Assembly (NCBI GenBank): GCA_001822815.1
Contig: MHSR01000013.1
Location: 18,808 to 82,807, forward strand
Length of the DNA: 64,000 bases
From: Candidatus Terrybacteria bacterium RIFCSPHIGHO2_01_FULL_43_35
GTDB taxonomy: Bacteria > Patescibacteriota > Minisyncoccia > Terrybacterales > GWB1-40-14
Direction: 5' to 3'
Part shown: positions 1-38,026 of the stretch, one piece after another
Numbering within the stretch: the first letter of the stretch is position 1
How the letters are laid out: each line of letters opens with the position of its first letter
Made by a program: the position numbers and the translations under genes
Notes under the pieces: model-generated
The model's database searches: none
Told to the model about the DNA's origin: nothing
What the model saw: only the letters and a program-made list of their open reading frames with translations

Positions 1-511
1 AGTTGATTTGAAATTCACCGCCACCATGGAAGAAGATTTGGATAAGATAGCCGGAGGCAAGATGGCCTGGGTGCCGGTAATCAAGGAATTTTACGACCCG
101 TTTTCAAAACACCTGGCTGAAAAATACGAGACGGTTGAGAAAAAAGAATTGGTTACGGAAACTACGGACGAAATATGTGAAAAATGCGGCAAGCCTATGA
201 TCATCCGTTTCGGCAGGTTCGGAAAATTCATGGCTTGCTCCGGTTTTCCTGAATGTCGCAATACCAAAACGCTTAAGAAAGGATTGGGCGTTTCGTGCCC
301 ATCATGTCTCAAAGGAGAAATTATTGAACGCAAAAGCAAGCGCGGAAGATTCTTTTATGGATGTTCCAGCTATCCAGACTGCACTTTTGCCTTGTGGGAA
401 AAACCAACCGGAGAAAAGTGTCCTACCTGCGGCTCGCTTTTGGTACAGAATAAATCGGGAAAAAGATGTTCCAATAAAGAGTGTCTGAATGCTAAAGGTT
501 TGGAGAAGTAA
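1..511 (+). CDS. topA: DNA topoisomerase I, C-terminal zinc-ribbon region. The 5' end is truncated by the window edge.
   Basis: Repeated C4 zinc-ribbon motifs (CEKCGKPMIIRFGRFGKFMACSGFPEC; CPSC..C; CPTC..C) typical of the TopA C-terminus. The ORF is open to the window start. Confidence 0.7.
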   Translation, partial: VDLKFTATMEEDLDKIAGGKMAWVPVIKEFYDPFSKHLAEKYETVEKKELVTETTDEICEKCGKPMIIRFGRFGKFMACSGFPECRNTKTLKKGLGVSCPSCLKGEIIERKSKRGRFFYGCSSYPDCTFALWEKPTGEKCPTCGSLLVQNKSGKRCSNKECLNAKGLEK

Positions 512-25468: not shown

Positions 25469-28400
25469 TTATTTCGTCTTTCTAATCCCAATCCATATTT
25501 TACTGTCGCCAAGTGAAAACTCCCGTTCAATGATAAATGTTTCGTTCTTGCGCTTCTCCCCCGTCTCCACCCGTTTGGCATAAACATCTTCTTTTATTTC
25601 CTGCGCGCGCTCCATAATATCGCGTCCAAAGTTTTCACTGGCCCAAATGCGTAAAGTTATCCTCTCTTTTGGTTTCAAACCGGCATCTTTGCGAGTGTTT
25701 TGTATCTGCCGTACAAGCTCGCGCATGGCGCCAAGCAACATGAGGGTAGGCGTTATGTGTATATTCAGAGCCATACCTTGTTCGGTATCACGAAGCCATT
25801 CTTGCCCATCTGGCAAAGAAGAAAGTATAGCCACGCTGCCAACGTTCATTTCTTCACAAAGAACTCTAAAAAGACCCTTATCTAATTTTTCTTTATTGGC
25901 GACTTTGGCCGTAAGAACCAGGGACGAAAGCGGCTGGCGCACTTTATGTCCGCTTTGAGCCCTTAGTTTAAGCGCAATCTGAATTTTGGCGCGCAAAGCC
26001 TCCATACTTTTTTCAAGTTTGGAATTTTGGGTTTTTTTATTTATTTGAGGCATGCGCTCAAGATGCACCGAAGCCTTAAGCCCCAAGCCCAGCCATAACT
26101 GCTCGGCAACAAACGGAGCAAACGGGGCGGCCAGCAAAGCGGTTTGTTTCAAAACAAAACTAAGAACTTCTGTCACCTGGACAAGCTCTTTTTTATTTTT
26201 GGGATGCTGAAATCTTTCGCGCGAGCGTCTAATATACCAGTTGGACAGGTCATCAATCACAAAAGCGCTTAAAGCACGTGTGGCGGCGGTGATATCATAA
26301 TTATCCATGCGCTTAATAATCTGTTCGCTTGCGGTGGCAAGACGCGATAATATCCATTTATCAAGAATATCGGTTGACGCTGGCGCTTTCGTATTTTTTA
26401 GCGCGCTAGCGGCGTAAAGCTTAAAAAAGGATAGAGAATTCCAGAGCGTACCCAAAAATTTCTGCTGCGCGTCTTTAAGTTCTTCTTCGTTGAAGCGCTT
26501 AGTGTCTGACGGGTGATTCATGGTGTAGAAATACCAACGTACGGCATCGGCCCCGTAAAGATCGGTCATATCCCACGGGCTTATCGCATTGCCCAGAGAC
26601 TTGGACATTTTTTTGCCATTTTTATCTACCACGTGACCGGTCACAACAACATTCTTATACGGCGTGCTTTTGCCGAGCAAAACAGAAACAGCCATGAGGG
26701 TATAAAACCATCCGCGCGTTTGATCTACGGCCTCGCAGATGAAATCAGCCGGGAAAGAAAGAGCTTTTTTATTTCCGCTCTTCTCAACGCGGTTTTTATT
26801 TTCAAAAGGATAATGCCACTGGGCAAAAGGCATGGCACCGGAATCAAACCAGACATCAATTACTTCACTCACCCGTTTCATAGGATGCGCGCACTTTTTA
26901 CACGCAAAAGTCAGGTCATCAACAAAAGGACGGTGCAGATCCAAACGGCCAGTATCGTCTGAAGGCGGCATTGAAGAAAGGATTTTTTCTTCTTTAGCAA
27001 AATCGGGATATGTCAGTTTGGGCGTACCGGCTTTTTTTGTCTTGAGATACGGCTCAACATATTCTTTATCCTCCGCGCCAAGCAAAATACCCTTAAGCAG
27101 CAGTAAGGGATCGCCGTGCCCAACCAACACAATGGTTTTATCGTTATAGATTTTCTCGAGATTCTGTATAAAATAATACATGCGGTTTCTAAGATCGAAC
27201 CAATTTTCGCCATTTAATGGCTTTTTGTGCCAGCGTTCGCCTGGCTTGTGTTCCAGGAAATCGTGATATTCTTTTATCGGCATGCTGTTGAATGCTCCCA
27301 AATCAAACTCGCGCAGTTCTGTTTCTTTTTTGGGCTTGATACCGCACGCTTTCCCCATAATTTCCGCCGTATCATTTGCCCTTTGAAGTGGTGAGGTGAA
27401 AATAATATCTGGTTTGATCCGCGCAATTCTTTTTGCGGCAGCGCGAGCCTGTTTTATACCGCGAGCGGTCAATGGATTACGTTTGTTTTCGGGCCAAGAA
27501 GAAACCCAACCCTGTACATTAGCCCTGGCTTGGGCATGACGAACCAAAATATATTTATTTTTTGTCTGTGAACGGGACAAAAGCTCTTTTATTGAGCCGA
27601 TGACTTCAGTTTGACCACATTGTTCGCATTTCCAAACAGGCAGTGGTATGCCCCAGTAGCGCTCGCGCGATATTGCCCAATCCTTAACTTCGTTCAGCCA
27701 CTCTCCGAATCTACCTCTTTTTATGTGTTCCGGTACCCAATTTACTTTTTCATTAGCTTCGCGGAGCTGTTTGCGCAATGCCGACATGCGTATGAACCAA
27801 CTTTGGCGGGCGTAATAAAGTAGTGGAGTTTTGCATCGCCAACAGAAAGGATAATCGTGAGTATAAAGTTCTTCCTTTAAAATAAGGTTGCGCTGATGTA
27901 AATATGAATTTATCACTATTTCTGCTTCTTTTGATTTGACCGGCAAGCCCGCCAGACCAGCATTAACCGTGTTCAAAAATCTTCCGTCCTCGCCTACTGT
28001 ATGGACTTTCGGCAAGCCAATCTTTGAGCCCAAATTATAATCGTCCTCGCCATACATGACCGCGGTATGAACTACGCCGGTGCCGTCTTCAGTGGTCACG
28101 AAATCGGCGGCATAAACTTTATGACTTTTTTCGTTTTTGGTTTCTGGGATATCAAAAAGGGGTTCATATTCAAGCCCCACTAACCTTGAACCCTTAATTT
28201 CGGCTAAAATATTTAACGGCTCTTTAAATAAACGCGCTGCGGCATCTTTAGCCAAAATATAAACTTCACCGCTGCCAACCTGCGCTTGTACGTAATCTAT
28301 GTCGTTGTTTACAGCCAAAGCCACGTTACCCGGCAAGGTCCAAGGAGTTGTAGTCCAACTTAATATGTAAGTATGTTTTTTGTCTTTTATTCTAAATTTA

Positions 28401-28999
28401 ATATAAACCGAATTTTCGGTGACCGATTCATATCCTTGAGCAACTTCGTGCGAAGCCAAAGCCGTACCACAGCGCGTACAATAAGGCACGACCTTAAAAT
28501 CCTGCTCCAATAATTTTTTATTCCATATCTCTTTTATTATTCGCCAAACGCTTTCTATGTAAGAATTATCGTAAGTAACGTATGGATCTGTAAGATCCAA
28601 CCATAAGCCTATACGCTCGGTTAAGCGCTGCCATTCATCTTTATAGCGCCATACGGATGCTTTGGCTTTCGCGTTAAACTCGGCAATGCCATAATCTTCA
28701 ATTTCTTGCTTGGTTTTGAAGCCCAATTCTTTCTCAACTCCAATTTCAACCGGCAAGCCATGTGTATCCCAACCGGCTTTACGCTCAACCAAAAAACCTT
28801 GCATGGTTTTGTAACGCAAAAAAGCATCTTTGATTGCGCGAACCAAAACATGATGTATACCTGGCTGGCCGTTGGCTGTGGGCGGACCTTCAAAAAAAAC
28901 AAAACGCGGTGCGCGGGCGCGCCTCTTTAAACTTTTGGCAAAGATTTTATTATCTTCCCAATATCTAAGTATTTCTTTTTCTTGTTCGGCAAAGTTCAT
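25469..28999 (-). CDS. ileS: Isoleucyl-tRNA synthetase with an inserted histidine-phosphatase-like domain
   Basis: The N-terminal class I signature region reads ...GIHHV..., and WAISRERYWG, KMSKSLGN and the anticodon-binding domain are all present. Total length is 1176 aa, including an extra domain at aa 482-660. Confidence 0.9.
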   Translation of the reverse strand: MNFAEQEKEILRYWEDNKIFAKSLKRRARAPRFVFFEGPPTANGQPGIHHVLVRAIKDAFLRYKTMQGFLVERKAGWDTHGLPVEIGVEKELGFKTKQEIEDYGIAEFNAKAKASVWRYKDEWQRLTERIGLWLDLTDPYVTYDNSYIESVWRIIKEIWNKKLLEQDFKVVPYCTRCGTALASHEVAQGYESVTENSVYIKFRIKDKKHTYILSWTTTPWTLPGNVALAVNNDIDYVQAQVGSGEVYILAKDAAARLFKEPLNILAEIKGSRLVGLEYEPLFDIPETKNEKSHKVYAADFVTTEDGTGVVHTAVMYGEDDYNLGSKIGLPKVHTVGEDGRFLNTVNAGLAGLPVKSKEAEIVINSYLHQRNLILKEELYTHDYPFCWRCKTPLLYYARQSWFIRMSALRKQLREANEKVNWVPEHIKRGRFGEWLNEVKDWAISRERYWGIPLPVWKCEQCGQTEVIGSIKELLSRSQTKNKYILVRHAQARANVQGWVSSWPENKRNPLTARGIKQARAAAKRIARIKPDIIFTSPLQRANDTAEIMGKACGIKPKKETELREFDLGAFNSMPIKEYHDFLEHKPGERWHKKPLNGENWFDLRNRMYYFIQNLEKIYNDKTIVLVGHGDPLLLLKGILLGAEDKEYVEPYLKTKKAGTPKLTYPDFAKEEKILSSMPPSDDTGRLDLHRPFVDDLTFACKKCAHPMKRVSEVIDVWFDSGAMPFAQWHYPFENKNRVEKSGNKKALSFPADFICEAVDQTRGWFYTLMAVSVLLGKSTPYKNVVVTGHVVDKNGKKMSKSLGNAISPWDMTDLYGADAVRWYFYTMNHPSDTKRFNEEELKDAQQKFLGTLWNSLSFFKLYAASALKNTKAPASTDILDKWILSRLATASEQIIKRMDNYDITAATRALSAFVIDDLSNWYIRRSRERFQHPKNKKELVQVTEVLSFVLKQTALLAAPFAPFVAEQLWLGLGLKASVHLERMPQINKKTQNSKLEKSMEALRAKIQIALKLRAQSGHKVRQPLSSLVLTAKVANKEKLDKGLFRVLCEEMNVGSVAILSSLPDGQEWLRDTEQGMALNIHITPTLMLLGAMRELVRQIQNTRKDAGLKPKERITLRIWASENFGRDIMERAQEIKEDVYAKRVETGEKRKNETFIIEREFSLGDSKIWIGIRKTK

Positions 29000-31285: not shown

Positions 31286-31519
31286 GATTCCATAAAACCA
31301 TGGATTTATTGCTTGCGCAAACCTTTCGATTTACTCGGGTCTTCGACTCCCGCGGGACTGAGTCCTCGGGACGAACGTCTGAGAGTCTCAGACTCGTTGA
31401 GGTAAACAAAAACAGCTCTATCTAAAACAGAACTGCTTTTGCGCCAAATATCTTTAACAAAAAGTATTTGAGCGTGGAACGAATTTACTTATCTTTTCTT
31501 ATTTTCAAAGTTGGTGTTG

Positions 31520-31750
31520 GTGGTGGAACTAGCCTTGACCTGGCCTAGGCTGGCTCGCGAGACGAACGGGGTTGGGCTTTCAGCCTGGTTGGGAACAGCT
31601 CTCGTTGTATCCCGTACCTATTTCTACCACCCGCTTTTATCCCTCTAGGGGATCCGATCTTCCGGTATCAGACAAACCGTCGTATTAAGGAAATCGGATG
31701 AGCTGTCAATCCGAAACCTTTTTCCACCACCAACCAAAAACGAATTTTTA
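31520..31750. repeat. Copy 1 of a roughly 230-nt structured repeat in a GC-rich islet
   Basis: Shares ordered blocks with 32595-32830: GGGCTTTC(A/G)GCCTG, TACCACCC, GATCTT(C/G)CGGTATCAG(A/G)AAACCGTC, CCACCACCAACCAAAA. Confidence 0.6.
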
Positions 31751-31866
31751 TAAACGCGCTTTTGGCTAATGACGAGATTTATACATGTTTGAAAATATTT
31801 TTGAGATTAACCAGCCCTAATTTCAGATTTGCTAAAATCAGGGCTGGACTGACTTTTGTCGAGGTT

Positions 31867-32073
31867 TCACTTCTCCGCCTCGACCTTCGGATCTTCCAGC
31901 TCGACACCGAGCTCACGCGCCGCGCCTTCGGCCAGCTCGCGCTTCTCCGCGGGCGAGAGCTTGTCGATCTCGACCTTGAACCCGGCCATGTCCTGGCCAG
32001 AGAGCTTGCCGAAGTACTTCCAGAGCACCACGAGCTCGGTCGCCTTGGCGGCTTTGGCGCCAGAGGTGTCCAT
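31867..32073 (-). CDS. Small GC-rich protein (68 aa) with a strong Shine-Dalgarno, hypothetical
   Basis: About 62% GC with high GC3. GAAGGAG lies 8 nt upstream of the ATG. A hairpin overlaps the stop codon. Confidence 0.55.
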   Translation of the reverse strand: MDTSGAKAAKATELVVLWKYFGKLSGQDMAGFKVEIDKLSPAEKRELAEGAARELGVELEDPKVEAEK

Positions 32074-32274
32074 CTTTGGACTCCTTCATTGCTTGATACG
32101 GCTTAAACAATCTCTACTAATTGCAAGAGTTGTTGCCGCGCCTCAACAAACTTCCTGTATTAGAAATTTGCTCAAGTGCGGAACTACTGGTTTTTTCTTT
32201 AAATATGGTGAAGCGAGGGGAAATTCTTACTTGAGTTCCCCTCGCTTACTTAACGATCCTTGTGGATCTGGTGA

Positions 32275-32544
32275 CTAGAGCAGTGCGAGGCGGACGCGTT
32301 CAAGTTTCGCGTGCCAAGCCCCTGAACCACCAGAGATGCGTGTCTCGCGCGTCGCAAGATCAGCCATCTCACGATCCCGCACCACAGCCACGCTGACGGT
32401 GGGCGCCTGATTGCTCGATCCGTGGTTGTAGGCGAAACCTTTCTGGCGTGCCACCTTGCGGATGTAGGTAAGCTTCCTGCTGCGCAGGAAGGAATTTGGG
32501 TCTGCCTTGACCTGGTTCTTCTTGGTGTGGCCTTCTGAGCTCAC
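32275..32544 (-). CDS. Small GC-rich basic protein (89 aa), GTG start with a strong Shine-Dalgarno, hypothetical
   Basis: TAAGGAGGAGAC-GTG start context. GC-rich stem terminator (AGCGAGGGGAA/TTCCCCTCGCT) downstream. Confidence 0.55.
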   Translation of the reverse strand: MSSEGHTKKNQVKADPNSFLRSRKLTYIRKVARQKGFAYNHGSSNQAPTVSVAVVRDREMADLATRETRISGGSGAWHAKLERVRLALL

Positions 32545-32594
32545 GTCTCCTCCTTACTTGGCTTTTGCCTGCCCGCTTCTTTGGTTTTAGTTAT

Positions 32595-32830
32595 TTAAAG
32601 GTGCGGATGGTGATGGGACTGGTATAGCGTAAGACGCCGAACGGCGTCACGTGCTTAACCGATGAATGGGACTGGGCTTTCGGCCTGCTCGTTTCAGAGT
32701 AGCTCTACTCCAGTAGCTTTCAGTACCACCCATATTTATCAACACGCTCTTTTTGCCTGAGGCATGGCCTGATCTTGCGGTATCAGGAAACCGTCATCTT
32801 CCCCATCACCACCAACCAAAACAAACATGT
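32595..32830. repeat. Copy 2 of the roughly 230-nt structured repeat
   Basis: See copy 1. Located immediately 5' (minus-strand sense) of the 89-aa gene. Confidence 0.6.
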
Positions 32831-33397
32831 TGTTGATGCAAACTTGCTTTGGTTGATGGCAATCAATGATTTAGTTTTTAAAAAACATTCTCATACAAGA
32901 CGAGACCCTCGGGCATGATCTTTTAGAAGATCACACCAGGGAGTCTCCTCTCGGAGTCTTACCTTCACCGCATCACGCTTAGCCCGCCAAAATTTTAAAA
33001 TAAAATTTGTATGTTTGCGGGGGTTGATGCGTTTTGACAGATGCTACACGCCAAACCGACGCTTCGGTTAAATCGCGGATGCCTCTGACACTGCAAATCA
33101 TTATACAAACCTATTGCATCCGCTCACGAAAGAATCAGTAAGGCGGTGACGACACCAAGCCTCCCAAGCTACTTGATGTCCTGCCTATGCATAGAAACTG
33201 TCAATGCATACTGTCAATAACTAAAGTATATCATATAAGTTTTAACTTGTCAAGAGCAAGAGGGTTGCTTTAGGCTTGTTTTGGATATTTTCTTTATTCT
33301 AAAAGGGTTATATTAAATTGTGATTTGTCAGAATATGCTGACATGTATGGGTTGAGTATGGTACTTCTAATTCAAACTTCGATATCGCCAGGCACTA

Positions 33398-33426
33398 TTG
33401 ACATTTATACCACATAATGATATAAT
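33398..33426 (+). promoter_or_regulatory. Consensus sigma70 promoter (TTGACA-17-TATAAT)
   Basis: TTGACA at 33398-33403, a 17-nt spacer, and TATAAT at 33421-33426, read directly. Confidence 0.7.
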
Positions 33427-33432
33427 TTTATT

Positions 33433-33797
33433 GTGCGGCATAAATGACCGCATGAAAACAAGCTCTCTTGAAGGAAGAGAGCAAGGAGTAGCGTTATGGG
33501 CAACGGGTAGGTAGCGTCTGAAGCAAAAGAATGTGGTATGCAAAACAAAGGCGCAAGGTAACTATTTACTAGACGCGCCCAAGATGAAAGCGGTACCAAT
33601 GGCTCTAGATCAAGCGCTGCCTTAACCCTCGGTTGTCAAACAGAGGATCGCAGAGCGATAAGAGCCCTAAAGACAAGCTTCAACGTTAACCCCTGGAAAA
33701 GGCCGCGCCTATCCAGACAAAAAACCCAAATCAAGCTCTCTTTGTTCTTTCTTCACCAAGGCCGCCACTCTACTCGAGAGGCGGCCTAAACTTTTAT
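33433..33797 (+). ncRNA. Candidate roughly 365-nt non-coding RNA of unknown class
   Basis: Bounded by the consensus promoter and an intrinsic terminator (GGCCGCC-13-GGCGGCC followed by TAAACTTTTAT, 33757-33797). No ORF longer than 20 codons. Internal hairpins are present, e.g. CTCTCTTgaaggAAGAGAG. Confidence 0.5.
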
Positions 33798-33851
33798 ACA
33801 AAAACTGCTTTTTATGCAGAGTTTAAAAGACGGAGCACTGCTTTCTGTTAT

Positions 33852-34580: not shown

Positions 34581-34900
34581 GTGCTAGTTGTTGCCCACGA
34601 CCCAGCTCTAATTTCTGAGCGTTTGGGCATTTCTAAAATTATAATGTATAATTTTATCTTGGTTTAAAACTTTTATCGAATTGTTTTTGGTAAATTAGGG
34701 CTGGATCGCGGTTGCAACGACGTGCATCTCTTCGAGTTCATCGAATCTGAGATTCTCTGAATCGAATGATCTGAAGACTCATCAGACGTTCGTCTCTTCG
34801 AGCCTGAGGGCTCCGCAGAGCCTGAACGGCCCGAGGACTCAGTCCCGAGGGAGTCTGAACGACCTAAGGAGCAAAGCGACGAGGGATTACTTTTCATTTA
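34581..34900. repeat. Composite repeat region (family A start-box plus degenerate serine-codon-like tandem units) abutting the TrmB-like gene start
   Basis: GTGCTAGTTGTTGCCCACGA lies directly after the start codon on the + strand. The 34700-34890 stretch resembles 39720-39800 and 31330-31400 (gcatctcttcgag..ctgaagactc..cgagggattac). Confidence 0.6.
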
Positions 34901-34977
34901 TTATAGCATTAAAAAGATTGAGCCCGGCCCGAGTTTTATCTAAAACTGGAGCTGGGCTCTTTGTTTTGGCTTAGCGG

Positions 34978-35151
34978 TTAAAACCAGATGACGGCCTGCG
35001 TTCTACCAGACGAACCTGCACCGGAACAGGAACCAGAATCAGGCGCGGCGCTGGTCTAGGTGACACGCGATCCAGAACGCTTGCGCCGAAATTCTTGGCT
35101 ATCCGCGAGAGCTTGGCTCCGCGGGATGAACGATTCACCATGGAATGTATC
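34978..35151 (-). CDS. Small GC-rich ORF (57 aa) with a perfect Shine-Dalgarno, hypothetical
   Basis: AAGGAGGATACATTCC-ATG context and about 58% GC. Below the ORF-track length cutoff. Confidence 0.4.
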
Positions 35152-35315
35152 CTCCTTACGGCTTGCTGATATGAAAAGTTCTGTTGGGGATAACGAGAAC
35201 TACTAAATACTATAAGTTTAAGGACTAAGTTTAAGAGTCTCGTTACCCCACTAATTACATTATAACACTAAAATAATGTTTGTCAAGAATTCGCCTCGCC
35301 TCCGTTTATCTGTTT

Positions 35316-37058: not shown

Positions 37059-37104
37059 AACTGTATATTTATTATAATACCATGCTAAATTGGGATTAGA
37101 GATT

Positions 37105-37548
37105 ATGACAACCCTTGCCGAAAATAAACGGGCTGGATTCGATTATGAAATCCTCGAAAAAATGGAGGCTGGTATTGTGTTAAACGGACAGGAAACCAAG
37201 TCTATAAGAGCTGGGCAAGCGTCTCTGGGCGGAGCGTTTGTAACGGTTAAAAACAATGAACTCTGGCTGACTAATATGAATGTAGCCCCGTGGCAACCCA
37301 AGAATATATCGCACAATTACGATGAAGCCCGTCCAAGAAAACTATTGATGCATAAAAATGAGATCGCATCGCTCATAGGCAAAATCAAAACCCGCGGCTT
37401 GACGGCCCTGCCCTTGCGATTATATACTCACCACGGTAAGATTAAAGTCGAAATAGGCGTTGTTAAATATAGGAAAAAGCACGACAAAAGAGAATTGATA
37501 AAGAAACGCGACGCCCAACGGGATATTGCCAGAACCTTAGCAGAATAA
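37105..37548 (+). CDS. smpB: SsrA-binding protein SmpB
   Basis: KRAGFDYEILEKMEAGIVLNGQETKSIRAG matches the SmpB N-terminus. tmRNA gene follows directly. Confidence 0.85.
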   Translation: MTTLAENKRAGFDYEILEKMEAGIVLNGQETKSIRAGQASLGGAFVTVKNNELWLTNMNVAPWQPKNISHNYDEARPRKLLMHKNEIASLIGKIKTRGLTALPLRLYTHHGKIKVEIGVVKYRKKHDKRELIKKRDAQRDIARTLAE

Positions 37549-37552
37549 AAAT

Positions 37553-37935
37553 GGGGATGCCGGGCTTCGAAAAGGAAAAGTGTAGCGCGCGCAGGACGAG
37601 GCCGATCAACAACCTCGAAAAAAGTTGATCACTTACAAGTGCAAACTTGTTCGCAAAAGTGCAGAACGCTTTCCGCGTTCCAGCATTTGCTCTTGCTTAA
37701 ATTAGCTTGAGCCATCCGGCCCTGATGCTCGATAAGGAAACGCCGGGTGCCATACATCGAGCTTGACTAGCATAAGGACCTCGCTTGCGCTACGCGACTC
37801 AAACAGGGGTAGGAATATCTGAAATTCTGCCGTTCTTTGACCGGATATTCTGACAAAACATTACAGAATGGCTAATCCTGTAGAAGCGTGCCGCATAATT
37901 TTTCTTTGACGTGGGTTCAACTCCCACCATCTCCA
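37553..37935 (+). ncRNA. ssrA: tmRNA (SsrA)
   Basis: 5' GGGGATGCCGGGCTTCGA... pairs with 3' ...GACGTGGGTTCAACTCCCACCATCTCCA (tRNA-like domain). An internal tag frame at 37640-37699 ends ...AFALA-TAA. Located immediately after smpB. Confidence 0.8.
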
Positions 37936-38026
37936 CAAACCATGCCGACAATTTATAAATAGTTTTAACTATCTGCAAAAGTTTAATTATTATCAGCGCC
38001 GTCCGCAGTTTCAACGAGGACCGCGC

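Follow-up and report, generated by a model that had tools for sequence, protein, structure and literature searches.

The stretch of DNA considered here (the window, 64,000 nucleotides (nt) in length) comes from Candidatus Terrybacteria, a member of the Candidate Phyla Radiation (CPR, or Patescibacteria), represented by a genome from Rifle aquifer groundwater (PMC5079060). On the minus strand, the locus under study reads argS, an open reading frame (ORF) of 56 amino acids (aa), a gene for a TrmB-like regulator, about 1.3 kb without genes, an 89-aa ORF and a 68-aa ORF, followed by genes for a protein with an HExxH motif (HEMFH), an 84-aa protein and a lipoprotein, and finally by ileS. We focus on a pair of elements of about 235 nt, collinear with each other and located on either side of the two small ORFs, which are probably paralogous genes for an undescribed, lineage-restricted, structured small RNA encoded on the minus strand. 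A preliminary description of the window had placed this pair of repeats at 31520-31750 and 32595-32830, limits that could be refined (Table 1), and had rightly pointed to the lipoprotein, a small protein and the HExxH protein nearby, none of which has a Pfam assignment.

At the DNA level the pair manifests itself in four families of direct repeats in register, spaced 1099-1115 nt apart, and a pairwise alignment of the copies displays conserved blocks in the same order with indels between them. A pattern composed of two such blocks matches the window at exactly the two element sites, with 0 matches expected by chance. Similarly, a covariance model run over the 64 kb recovers exactly two copies, the next match reaching 17 bits with filters off. 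Copy 2 forms part of the 5' leader of the 89-aa ORF, 54 nt ahead of its Shine-Dalgarno (SD) sequence. Identity between the two copies amounts to 60-75%, with 64 gap columns, and in a three-sequence alignment that includes the copy from a second organism (see below) copy 2 shows 60-63% identity to both others; as it also lacks the hairpin P2, it is the older or the faster-evolving paralogue. Each element is bounded by terminal inverted repeats of 13-17 base pairs (bp; inverted repeat I10).

The third member of the family is found on L017, a 1.3-kb contig of a distant relative, which encodes a weak homologue (P0004) of the 68-aa protein. After the 68-aa gene, L017 possesses the same hairpin, an RNA copy (L017:602-855, 281 bits), a terminator and then an orthologue of the lipoprotein (38% identity to that of the window, E = 5e-13); L017:297-851 is collinear with the window from 32048 down to 31512, a segment comprising the 68-aa gene, its hairpin and copy 1. 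Over 220 aligned nt the L017 copy has 79% identity to copy 1, as against 63% nucleotide and 51% amino-acid identity in the adjacent coding sequence, and by this comparison the RNA is the best-conserved feature of the locus. The preliminary description had proposed a check for presence or absence in related genomes, and the relative indeed differs: it retains the 68-aa gene and one RNA and is devoid of copy 2 with the 89-aa ORF and of the HExxH and 84-aa genes. The blocks restricted to the window are, accordingly, copy 2 plus the 89-aa ORF plus its hairpin (~690 nt) and the HExxH and 84-aa genes, while two pieces of the L017 leader (109-128 and 173-197) match the window at 32947→32896, just upstream of the start of copy 2. 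Between the RNA copy and the terminator, L017 also contains (at 885-925) a strong SD sequence, AGAGGAG, followed by a mini-ORF of seven codons (MVPYEAR). This mini-ORF holds the position that the 89-aa ORF occupies after copy 2 and may be a chance occurrence or a degenerate remnant.

Table 1. Features of the locus (positions in the window); RNAs, hairpins, terminator and promoter are predictions.
Feature	Position	Strand	Remarks
Structured RNA, copy 1	31508..31746	-	covariance model 257 bits; orthologue of L017:602-855; has the lineage-specific hairpin P2
Structured RNA, copy 2	32598..32828	-	covariance model 180 bits; paralogue without P2, with longer variable hairpins
68-aa protein gene	31867..32073	-	AAGGAG SD sequence; GC content at third codon positions (GC3) 0.87; homologues P0003, P0004 and three viral loci
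89-aa orphan ORF	32275..32544	-	GTG start; TAAGGAGG SD sequence; GC3 0.70; basic (rich in lysine and arginine)
Hairpin, 21 bp, immediately 5' of copy 2	32805..32863	-	z = -3.9; G.U pairs in the minus-strand reading
Intrinsic terminator, hairpin + UUUUUGUUU	31400..31443	-	predicted fold; ~65 nt past copy 1
Hairpin, 16 bp, no U-run, after 68-aa gene	31811..31847	-	inverted repeat I8; sequence conserved in L017
Hairpin, 12 bp, after 89-aa ORF	32211..32247	-	inverted repeat I17, 100% complementary
Promoter TTGACA-17-TATACT, with TG, consensus-like	33225..33253	-	would drive a ~350-nt structured leader into copy 2, the 89-aa ORF and the 68-aa gene
Candidate non-coding RNA, ~350 nt	33434..33790	+	folding z = -5.84; ends at hairpin 33759-33787

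The comparison with L017 bears directly on the idea, raised in the preliminary description, that the repeats bracket an islet reminiscent of toxin-antitoxin, abortive-infection or other defence modules, i.e. that the copies are terminal or attachment repeats of an acquired mobile, toxin-antitoxin or defence element carrying the two small genes. The copies do physically flank two GC-rich ORFs, the relatives of the 68-aa protein outside the lineage occur only in GC-rich viral contigs, and a near-repeat of the 3' arm of the closing stem (P1) is found upstream of the element in two of the three copies. However, L017 keeps the 68-aa gene beside a single RNA copy, and the piece that varies between the two organisms does not extend from repeat to repeat; since the 68-aa gene lies outside this variable piece, the copies are not the ends of a mobile island. 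Moreover, boundary repeats arising by duplication of a target would be expected to be near-identical. The copies share only 60-75% identity and differ by indels and compensated substitutions, which indicates that selection acts on the RNA, and the high GC3 of the 68-aa gene is retained despite saturated synonymous divergence between the syntenic loci. According to Pfam annotations, no integrase, recombinase, transposase or reverse transcriptase is encoded within 10 kb on either side, and PADLOC, Pfam, NCBIfam and PHROGs gave zero matches for the 68-aa, 89-aa, 56-aa, HExxH, 84-aa and lipoprotein sequences. Likewise, the tandem array of short repeats typical of type III toxin-antitoxin systems is not present at the locus. 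The islet model is largely refuted by L017, and we regard it, together with its defence variants, as very improbable; the small GC-rich genes lie next to the RNA, which does not delimit them as a cargo.

In the predicted fold, a terminal stem of 12-17 bp (P1), with arms rich in GGU and ACC, closes a core of some nine helices; the closing stem of copy 2 likewise appears in the fold predicted for that copy. Compared with shuffled sequences, both copies fold better on either strand (z about -2.3 to -3.0; copy 1, z = -2.97), and since this holds for both strands, folding alone decides nothing. Compensatory changes are present in most helices. RNAalifold, applied to the three sequences, returned eight helices with 11 of 52 pairs changed on both sides. 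In a revised structure, two of these helices were replaced by a RYGGG/CCCRU helix and the hairpin P2, which occurs in copy 1 and L017 only, was added. The RYGGG/CCCRU helix (columns 131-135 with 199-203) shows 100% pairing, including one compensatory change, and it compensates a G-to-A change that RNAalifold had left mismatched. In the revised structure, 94.2% of the pair cells are paired and both partners have changed in 12 of 53 pairs, and none of 500 shuffles reaches either value, statistics that are favourable by construction and thus supportive, and not a probability or a significance test. As a control, sliding the partner strand by 1-3 columns left 29-48% pairing and 0-3 double-sided pairs. 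The ordered conserved blocks had been taken earlier as the mark of a structured RNA family and not of a simple repeat, a view that is supported by the compensatory changes and by the third member in another organism.

The most conserved block of the element is RYGGG-UGGUA, in which an invariant single-stranded UGGUA directly follows the RYGGG strand of the helix. The apex of P4 reads C-GGAA-G, C-GCAA-G and C-GAAA-G in the three copies, i.e. it is a GNRA tetraloop that varies only at N, and P8 is a GGC[YGAAA]GCC hairpin. The loops of P2 (AGCUC) and P7 (GAGCU) are mutually complementary, and a loop-loop contact between them may exist. When the alignment is read on the plus strand, 17 G.U cells turn into A.C, while only 4 A.C cells change the other way, and pairing amounts to ~93% on the minus strand compared with ~85% on the plus strand. 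This asymmetry, the GNRA apex of P4 and the occurrence of a downstream hairpin with U-run in two organisms indicate that the RNA strand is the minus strand. These features also bear on the reading of the copies as a DNA-level repeat, either a miniature inverted-repeat transposable element or a repetitive extragenic palindromic sequence, in which the terminal inverted repeats merely resemble the closing stem of an RNA. The 13-17 bp terminal repeats, the element size of ~235 bp and the presence of more than one copy would suit such an origin. Yet the 64 kb harbour only two, highly diverged copies, the internal helices covary with strand-specific G.U pairs, and the orthologous copy has kept its 79% identity between organisms whose proteins are 38-51% identical, so that we find this reading hardly credible.

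Further predicted structures accompany the copies. The hairpin immediately 5' of copy 2 runs with its 3' arm into the 5' arm of P1, and an equivalent hairpin of 22-24 bp precedes the L017 copy (567-625, z = -10.6), whereas copy 1 is without an upstream competing arm. In copy 2 the upstream hairpin and P1 can coexist, the states being near isoenergetic (-89.3 vs -87.9 kcal/mol). The upstream hairpin could be a conformational switch, a processing site (the length of the duplex would suit RNase III) or a 5' stabiliser. The terminator beyond copy 1 has an analogue in L017, where a hairpin followed by UUUUUGAUUU is situated at ~930-968, ~80 nt past the RNA copy. The leader that would start from the consensus-like promoter (33253-32860, minus strand, ~350 nt) folds with z = -4.0, and its last hairpin (~32895-32960) is partly conserved in L017, with a 43-nt loop insertion there. 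Two AUUGACAGU direct repeats are located at the predicted transcription start of this promoter.

The element could not be assigned to a described RNA. In the window, Rfam 15 at gathering thresholds detects only the transfer-messenger RNA (tmRNA) and two transfer RNAs (tRNAs), and permissive searches (E <= 10) of the region and of each cropped copy yield generic hairpin matches to the upstream hairpin, with nothing that recurs on the core. No RNA motif described for this lineage was found in the literature. The exact two-block DNA pattern has 0 matches in 185,579 representative genomes, a set from which the source genome is absent too (non-representative or masked); three other block patterns have 0 matches in viral contigs, and as all these scans need exact conserved blocks, diverged relatives could be missed. 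A single match to the pattern in a JGI (Joint Genome Institute) metagenome was rejected as chance, since it falls within coding sequence on a GC-rich, phage-like contig and fails the covariance model. Searches of the element against phages and plasmids with blastn were negative, as was a homologue search with the lipoprotein as protein anchor for the RNA family. In exact-protein look-ups, L35, P0006 and P0007 led only to the same Rifle strain or to nothing, and P0008 only to the L016 organism. Several candidate identities were considered and rejected: a diversity-generating retroelement, because the differences are not adenine-specific and there is no reverse transcriptase; a retron RNA, for want of a reverse transcriptase as well; an integron attC site, as the arms misfit the RYYYAAC/GTTRRRY core sites, no integrase is present and the element is too long; and RNase P, signal recognition particle or 6S RNA, none of whose models matches either the element or the ~350-nt plus-strand RNA of Table 1. 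A CUGAUGAG string near 34790, suggestive of a hammerhead ribozyme, has no Rfam match and was likewise dismissed.

Among known systems, one close comparison is with the discriminator domain of the T-box riboswitch (RF00230). In T-boxes, the UGGN invariably stands directly next to helix A1 and base-pairs with the 3'-NCCA end of the tRNA, within a T-box sequence that is the 14-nt AGGGUGGNACCGCG (PMC7583486, PMC11297988); a 5' Stem I with a specifier codon followed by a purine, and with a K-turn at its base, is obligate (PMC7583486). In the element, the 5' strand of the helix ends in GGG and is followed without a gap by an unpaired UGGU, which matches GGGUGGNA of AGGGUGGNACCGCG, and the synthetase genes ileS and argS are located within a few kb of the locus. 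However, the three copies have only GGGUGGNA in common, that is 7 specified positions plus N (with one further C in copy 2), and the ACCGCG part of the T-box sequence is absent. Furthermore, the element possesses neither Stem I, specifier loop and K-turn nor Stem II and pseudoknot, the only candidate for Stem I being hairpin P2, which copy 2 lacks. Its 'bulge' measures ~11 nt instead of 7 nt, and where a T-box has a single A2 hairpin, its helix encloses two (P6/7 and P8). The 3' strand of the helix is free of overlap with a terminator or sequestrator, a terminal stem closes the entire RNA, and none of the genes directly downstream is related to amino-acid metabolism. At E <= 10, the element is not matched by the Rfam T-box model. 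The identification as a T-box was rejected, as the element has UGGN abutting a helix and none of the other defining features. A new class of ligand- or tRNA-sensing RNA would be a less literal version of this likeness: in such a class, the T-box-like helix with UGGN would read the tRNA 3'-NCCA end or bind another conserved cellular partner on a P1-closed scaffold unrelated to the T-box, with the upstream hairpin as switch. We consider this unlikely.

Resemblance to lysine and cobalamin riboswitches is of a more general kind. Like these, the element is a multi-helix junction of ~170-240 nt closed by P1, with invariant nucleotides in junction and loops and with GNRA loops that suggest tertiary contacts, and it is located upstream of genes in the same orientation. 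In contrast to them, it matches no Rfam 15 class, has no evident expression platform that overlaps P1 and precedes an incoherent set of downstream genes; copy 1 and the L017 copy end in terminators of their own, after which the next gene apparently has its own promoter. In riboswitches generally, the platform shares a strand with the aptamer. Here, none uses the 3' strand of P1, and two of the three copies have a hairpin in competition for the 5' strand.

Such likenesses nevertheless raise the question of whether the element is a cis-regulatory leader, either a riboswitch-like aptamer or a tRNA sensor, whose P1-closed core binds a ligand and controls the next gene through the terminator or the upstream hairpin; the genes considered as targets were the 89-aa ORF, the HExxH gene and, in L017, the lipoprotein gene. 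Several observations would be accommodated by this explanation, namely the P1-closed junction with its invariant nucleotides, the position of the element, which is always upstream of and co-oriented with a gene, the terminator that follows two of the three copies, the strong hairpin in two of three that competes with P1 for its 5' strand, and the resemblance of the helix and UGGU to the discriminator helix A1 and bulge of the T-box (PMC7583486). Against it, the terminators are 65-80 nt away, self-contained and situated in non-conserved sequence, and they overlap neither P1 nor a conserved strand; in L017 a separate promoter-like site stands between the terminator and the lipoprotein gene. In addition, the downstream genes are unrelated to each other, copy 1 has no competing hairpin, and the 3' arm of P1 is not convincingly complementary to the ribosome-binding site of the 89-aa ORF. 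Sequestration of the SD sequence by a freed P1 arm was itself rejected, the complementarity being weak. On balance, a purely cis-regulatory role, the chief alternative for the family, appears doubtful.

We return to the reading of the copies as paralogous genes for a small RNA, of which a stand-alone transcript ended by its own terminator is our best guess. Copy 1 would represent the ancestral locus, made as a discrete RNA that ends at the terminator downstream, as in L017, and generated either from its own weak promoter or by processing from the 3' end of the 68-aa messenger RNA. Copy 2 would be a diverged duplicate, which together with the 89-aa ORF came to lie in the 5' leader of the 68-aa operon here and not in L017; it would be transcribed from the strong promoter at 33253-33225 within a long structured leader that continues into the 89-aa ORF. 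The likeliest action is that of a stable folded RNA which binds a conserved cellular partner, a protein or an RNA such as the tRNA 3' end, and in the context of copy 2 the same fold could couple partner binding to the expression of the following ORF. Parallels among complex orphan non-coding RNAs of bacteria are the raiA motif RNA and OLE RNA, with which the element shares a conserved intricate fold, a narrow phylogenetic range and a predicted stand-alone transcript; it differs from them in having no homology to either, in forming a much smaller family, known from three sequences, two organisms and one CPR lineage, and in its tandem paralogy within a single operon region.

Some observations weigh against this interpretation. 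The upstream hairpin of L017, if transcribed, is predicted to be ~13 kcal/mol better than P1, and as it would outcompete the closing stem, the closed form may not be the only or the functional form. Copy 2 has no terminator and runs straight into an ORF, which is a better fit to a cis-acting leader. The candidate promoter of copy 1, TCGTCA-17-TATAAA (31775-31747, minus strand), is weak, with agreement at 4/6 and 5/6 positions as read by eye. The structure was, moreover, derived from only three distinct sequences from two organisms, the same three on which its covariation was scored. Finally, the expression of the copies is a prediction from sequence, the partner is hypothetical and the mechanism is one that we infer.

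A different use of the same fold is conceivable in the light of ribosomal-protein leaders, in which one copy of a fold stands alone and a diverged copy resides in the 5' leader of a small basic protein. Applied to the present locus, the basic 89-aa protein would bind the RNA fold, with copy 1 as its true partner and copy 2 as a mimic in the leader for feedback repression. This would account for one stand-alone and one leader-embedded copy, and the lysine- and arginine-rich product and the very strong SD sequence 54 nt after copy 2 are in line with it. On the other hand, the 89-aa protein is an orphan, its binding to RNA is hypothetical, its structural model (AlphaFold, mean predicted local distance difference test (pLDDT) of 57) is too poor for use, and its translation is only putative. 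The ORF is absent from L017, where the RNA is conserved, so the core function of the RNA cannot depend on this protein, and we consider feedback mimicry improbable. No homologues of the 89-aa protein were found among 5.8 billion proteins or 1.84 billion representatives, nor in viral contigs, and the one match, P0005, was rejected as a low-complexity repeat artefact. The GC content at its three codon positions (0.61/0.48/0.70) looks like that of coding sequence, and we treat the product as a putative protein.

The 68-aa ORF does have homologues. Its conserved C-terminal block (…KQELAEGAARELGVELE) displays nonsynonymous differences (pN) of 0.06-0.12 and synonymous differences (pS) of 0.74-0.89, the latter saturated, which marks it as a genuine gene under purifying selection. 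Its relatives comprise two metagenomic proteins, one of which (L016/L026) is encoded by a gene that stands alone, has a consensus promoter and a terminator to itself and lacks an RNA in its vicinity, and, outside the lineage, only three proteins from viral contigs in IMG/VR with 57-59% GC; none was found in 185,579 representative genomes or in cultured phages. An AlphaFold model (pLDDT 77) predicts a small three-helix domain; only an unnamed viral protein of 53 aa matches it well in structure (template modelling score (TM) 0.79), with no significant match in the PDB. The three cellular homologues possess a GC3 of 0.75-0.87 within flanks of 37-46% GC. The combination of saturated synonymous divergence with shared synteny points to a maintained composition or to repeated exchange with a GC-rich phage pool, and not to a single recent transfer. 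The word 'foreign', used in the preliminary description, is thus apt insofar as relatives occur in GC-rich viral contigs, and inapt insofar as high GC3 has been kept in three AT-rich hosts despite this divergence.

The composition of the region as a whole is less uniform than first described. The window has a GC content of 44.0%, and the GC3 of its 53 ORFs of at least 100 aa is 0.43 ± 0.05, a value well exceeded by both small ORFs (Table 1), as had been noted. A switch from about 45% to about 60% GC was described for 31290-33850; it holds for the two ORFs (65% for the 68-aa ORF and 60% for the 89-aa ORF) and not for the span, which has 47% GC overall, with 51% in the RNA copies, 42% in 32870-33850 and a peak of 0.58 in 300-nt windows. 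High GC is limited to the two small ORFs, and there is no single abrupt 60% islet. The perfect SD sequences of the two ORFs, AAGGAG ahead of an ATG and TAAGGAGG ahead of the one GTG start, do contrast with the rest of the window as originally reported, an SD core of at least 5 nt being present in only ~10 of the 53 other genes (start codons chosen crudely). A third small orphan ORF (the 56-aa ORF, 34971-35141, minus strand, 57% GC) has a perfect TAAGGAGG SD sequence, its own TTGACA/TATAAT promoter at ~35259-35286, a leader hairpin and a terminator; homologue searches with it were negative. GC-rich mini-genes with strong SD sequences consequently recur in this genome.

On the opposite strand, the candidate non-coding RNA of ~350 nt is preceded by a promoter of the sigma-70 type, TTGACA-17-TATAAT with TG (33398-33426, plus strand, 12/12 positions), which is divergent from that at 33253-33225. 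The long closing stem predicted for the RNA joins ~33469-33482 with 33735-33755, and the RNA is convergent with the TrmB gene; its strand contains no ORF of at least 40 aa there, and Rfam gives no match. Beyond the RNAs, a palindrome-rich motif, GACTCCCNCGGGACTGAGTCCTCGGG…GACGAACGTCTGA.GAGTC.TCAGA, occurs as an inverted pair at 31345-31393 (plus strand) and 34770-34855 (minus strand), 92-93% identical with a 32-nt insertion in one, each copy a short way upstream of a gene on the minus strand (HExxH and TrmB, respectively). The two sites are the densest GANTC clusters of the window (5-6 sites per 150 nt), in which GANTC is under-represented (153 observed vs ~242 expected), and the L017 leader has a similar GCCGAGTCTGACTCGGC palindrome. 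The motif could be a regulator-binding or methylation site. Two further genes of the window may be mentioned. The isoleucyl-tRNA synthetase (IleRS; 25469-28999, minus strand, 1176 aa) contains, according to precomputed Pfam annotation, a PF00300 histidine-phosphatase domain between two tRNA-synt_1 segments, with an LVRHAQ motif in the sequence, an insertion unusual for IleRS. The tmRNA (37553-37938, plus strand, 122 bits, tag peptide ANLFAKVQNAFRVPAFALA) lies directly 3' of smpB (37090-37548, plus strand) and represents ordinary housekeeping content.

The genomes of CPR bacteria are tiny and contain little non-coding DNA, and to our knowledge almost no lineage-specific RNAs have been described from them. 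Here, however, ~2.5 kb are given to what is predicted to be structured RNA, namely two nine-helix paralogues, a structured leader and the ~350-nt candidate on the opposite strand. A second question raised by the locus is the extreme GC3 of the 68-aa gene in three AT-rich hosts. If it is true that the UGGU module reads tRNA 3' ends, the element would solve the same problem as the T-box by independent means; at the least, it qualifies as a clean candidate for a new Rfam family. That the RNA is far better conserved than the neighbouring proteins suggests an important, as yet unrecognised RNA-based function in this lineage.

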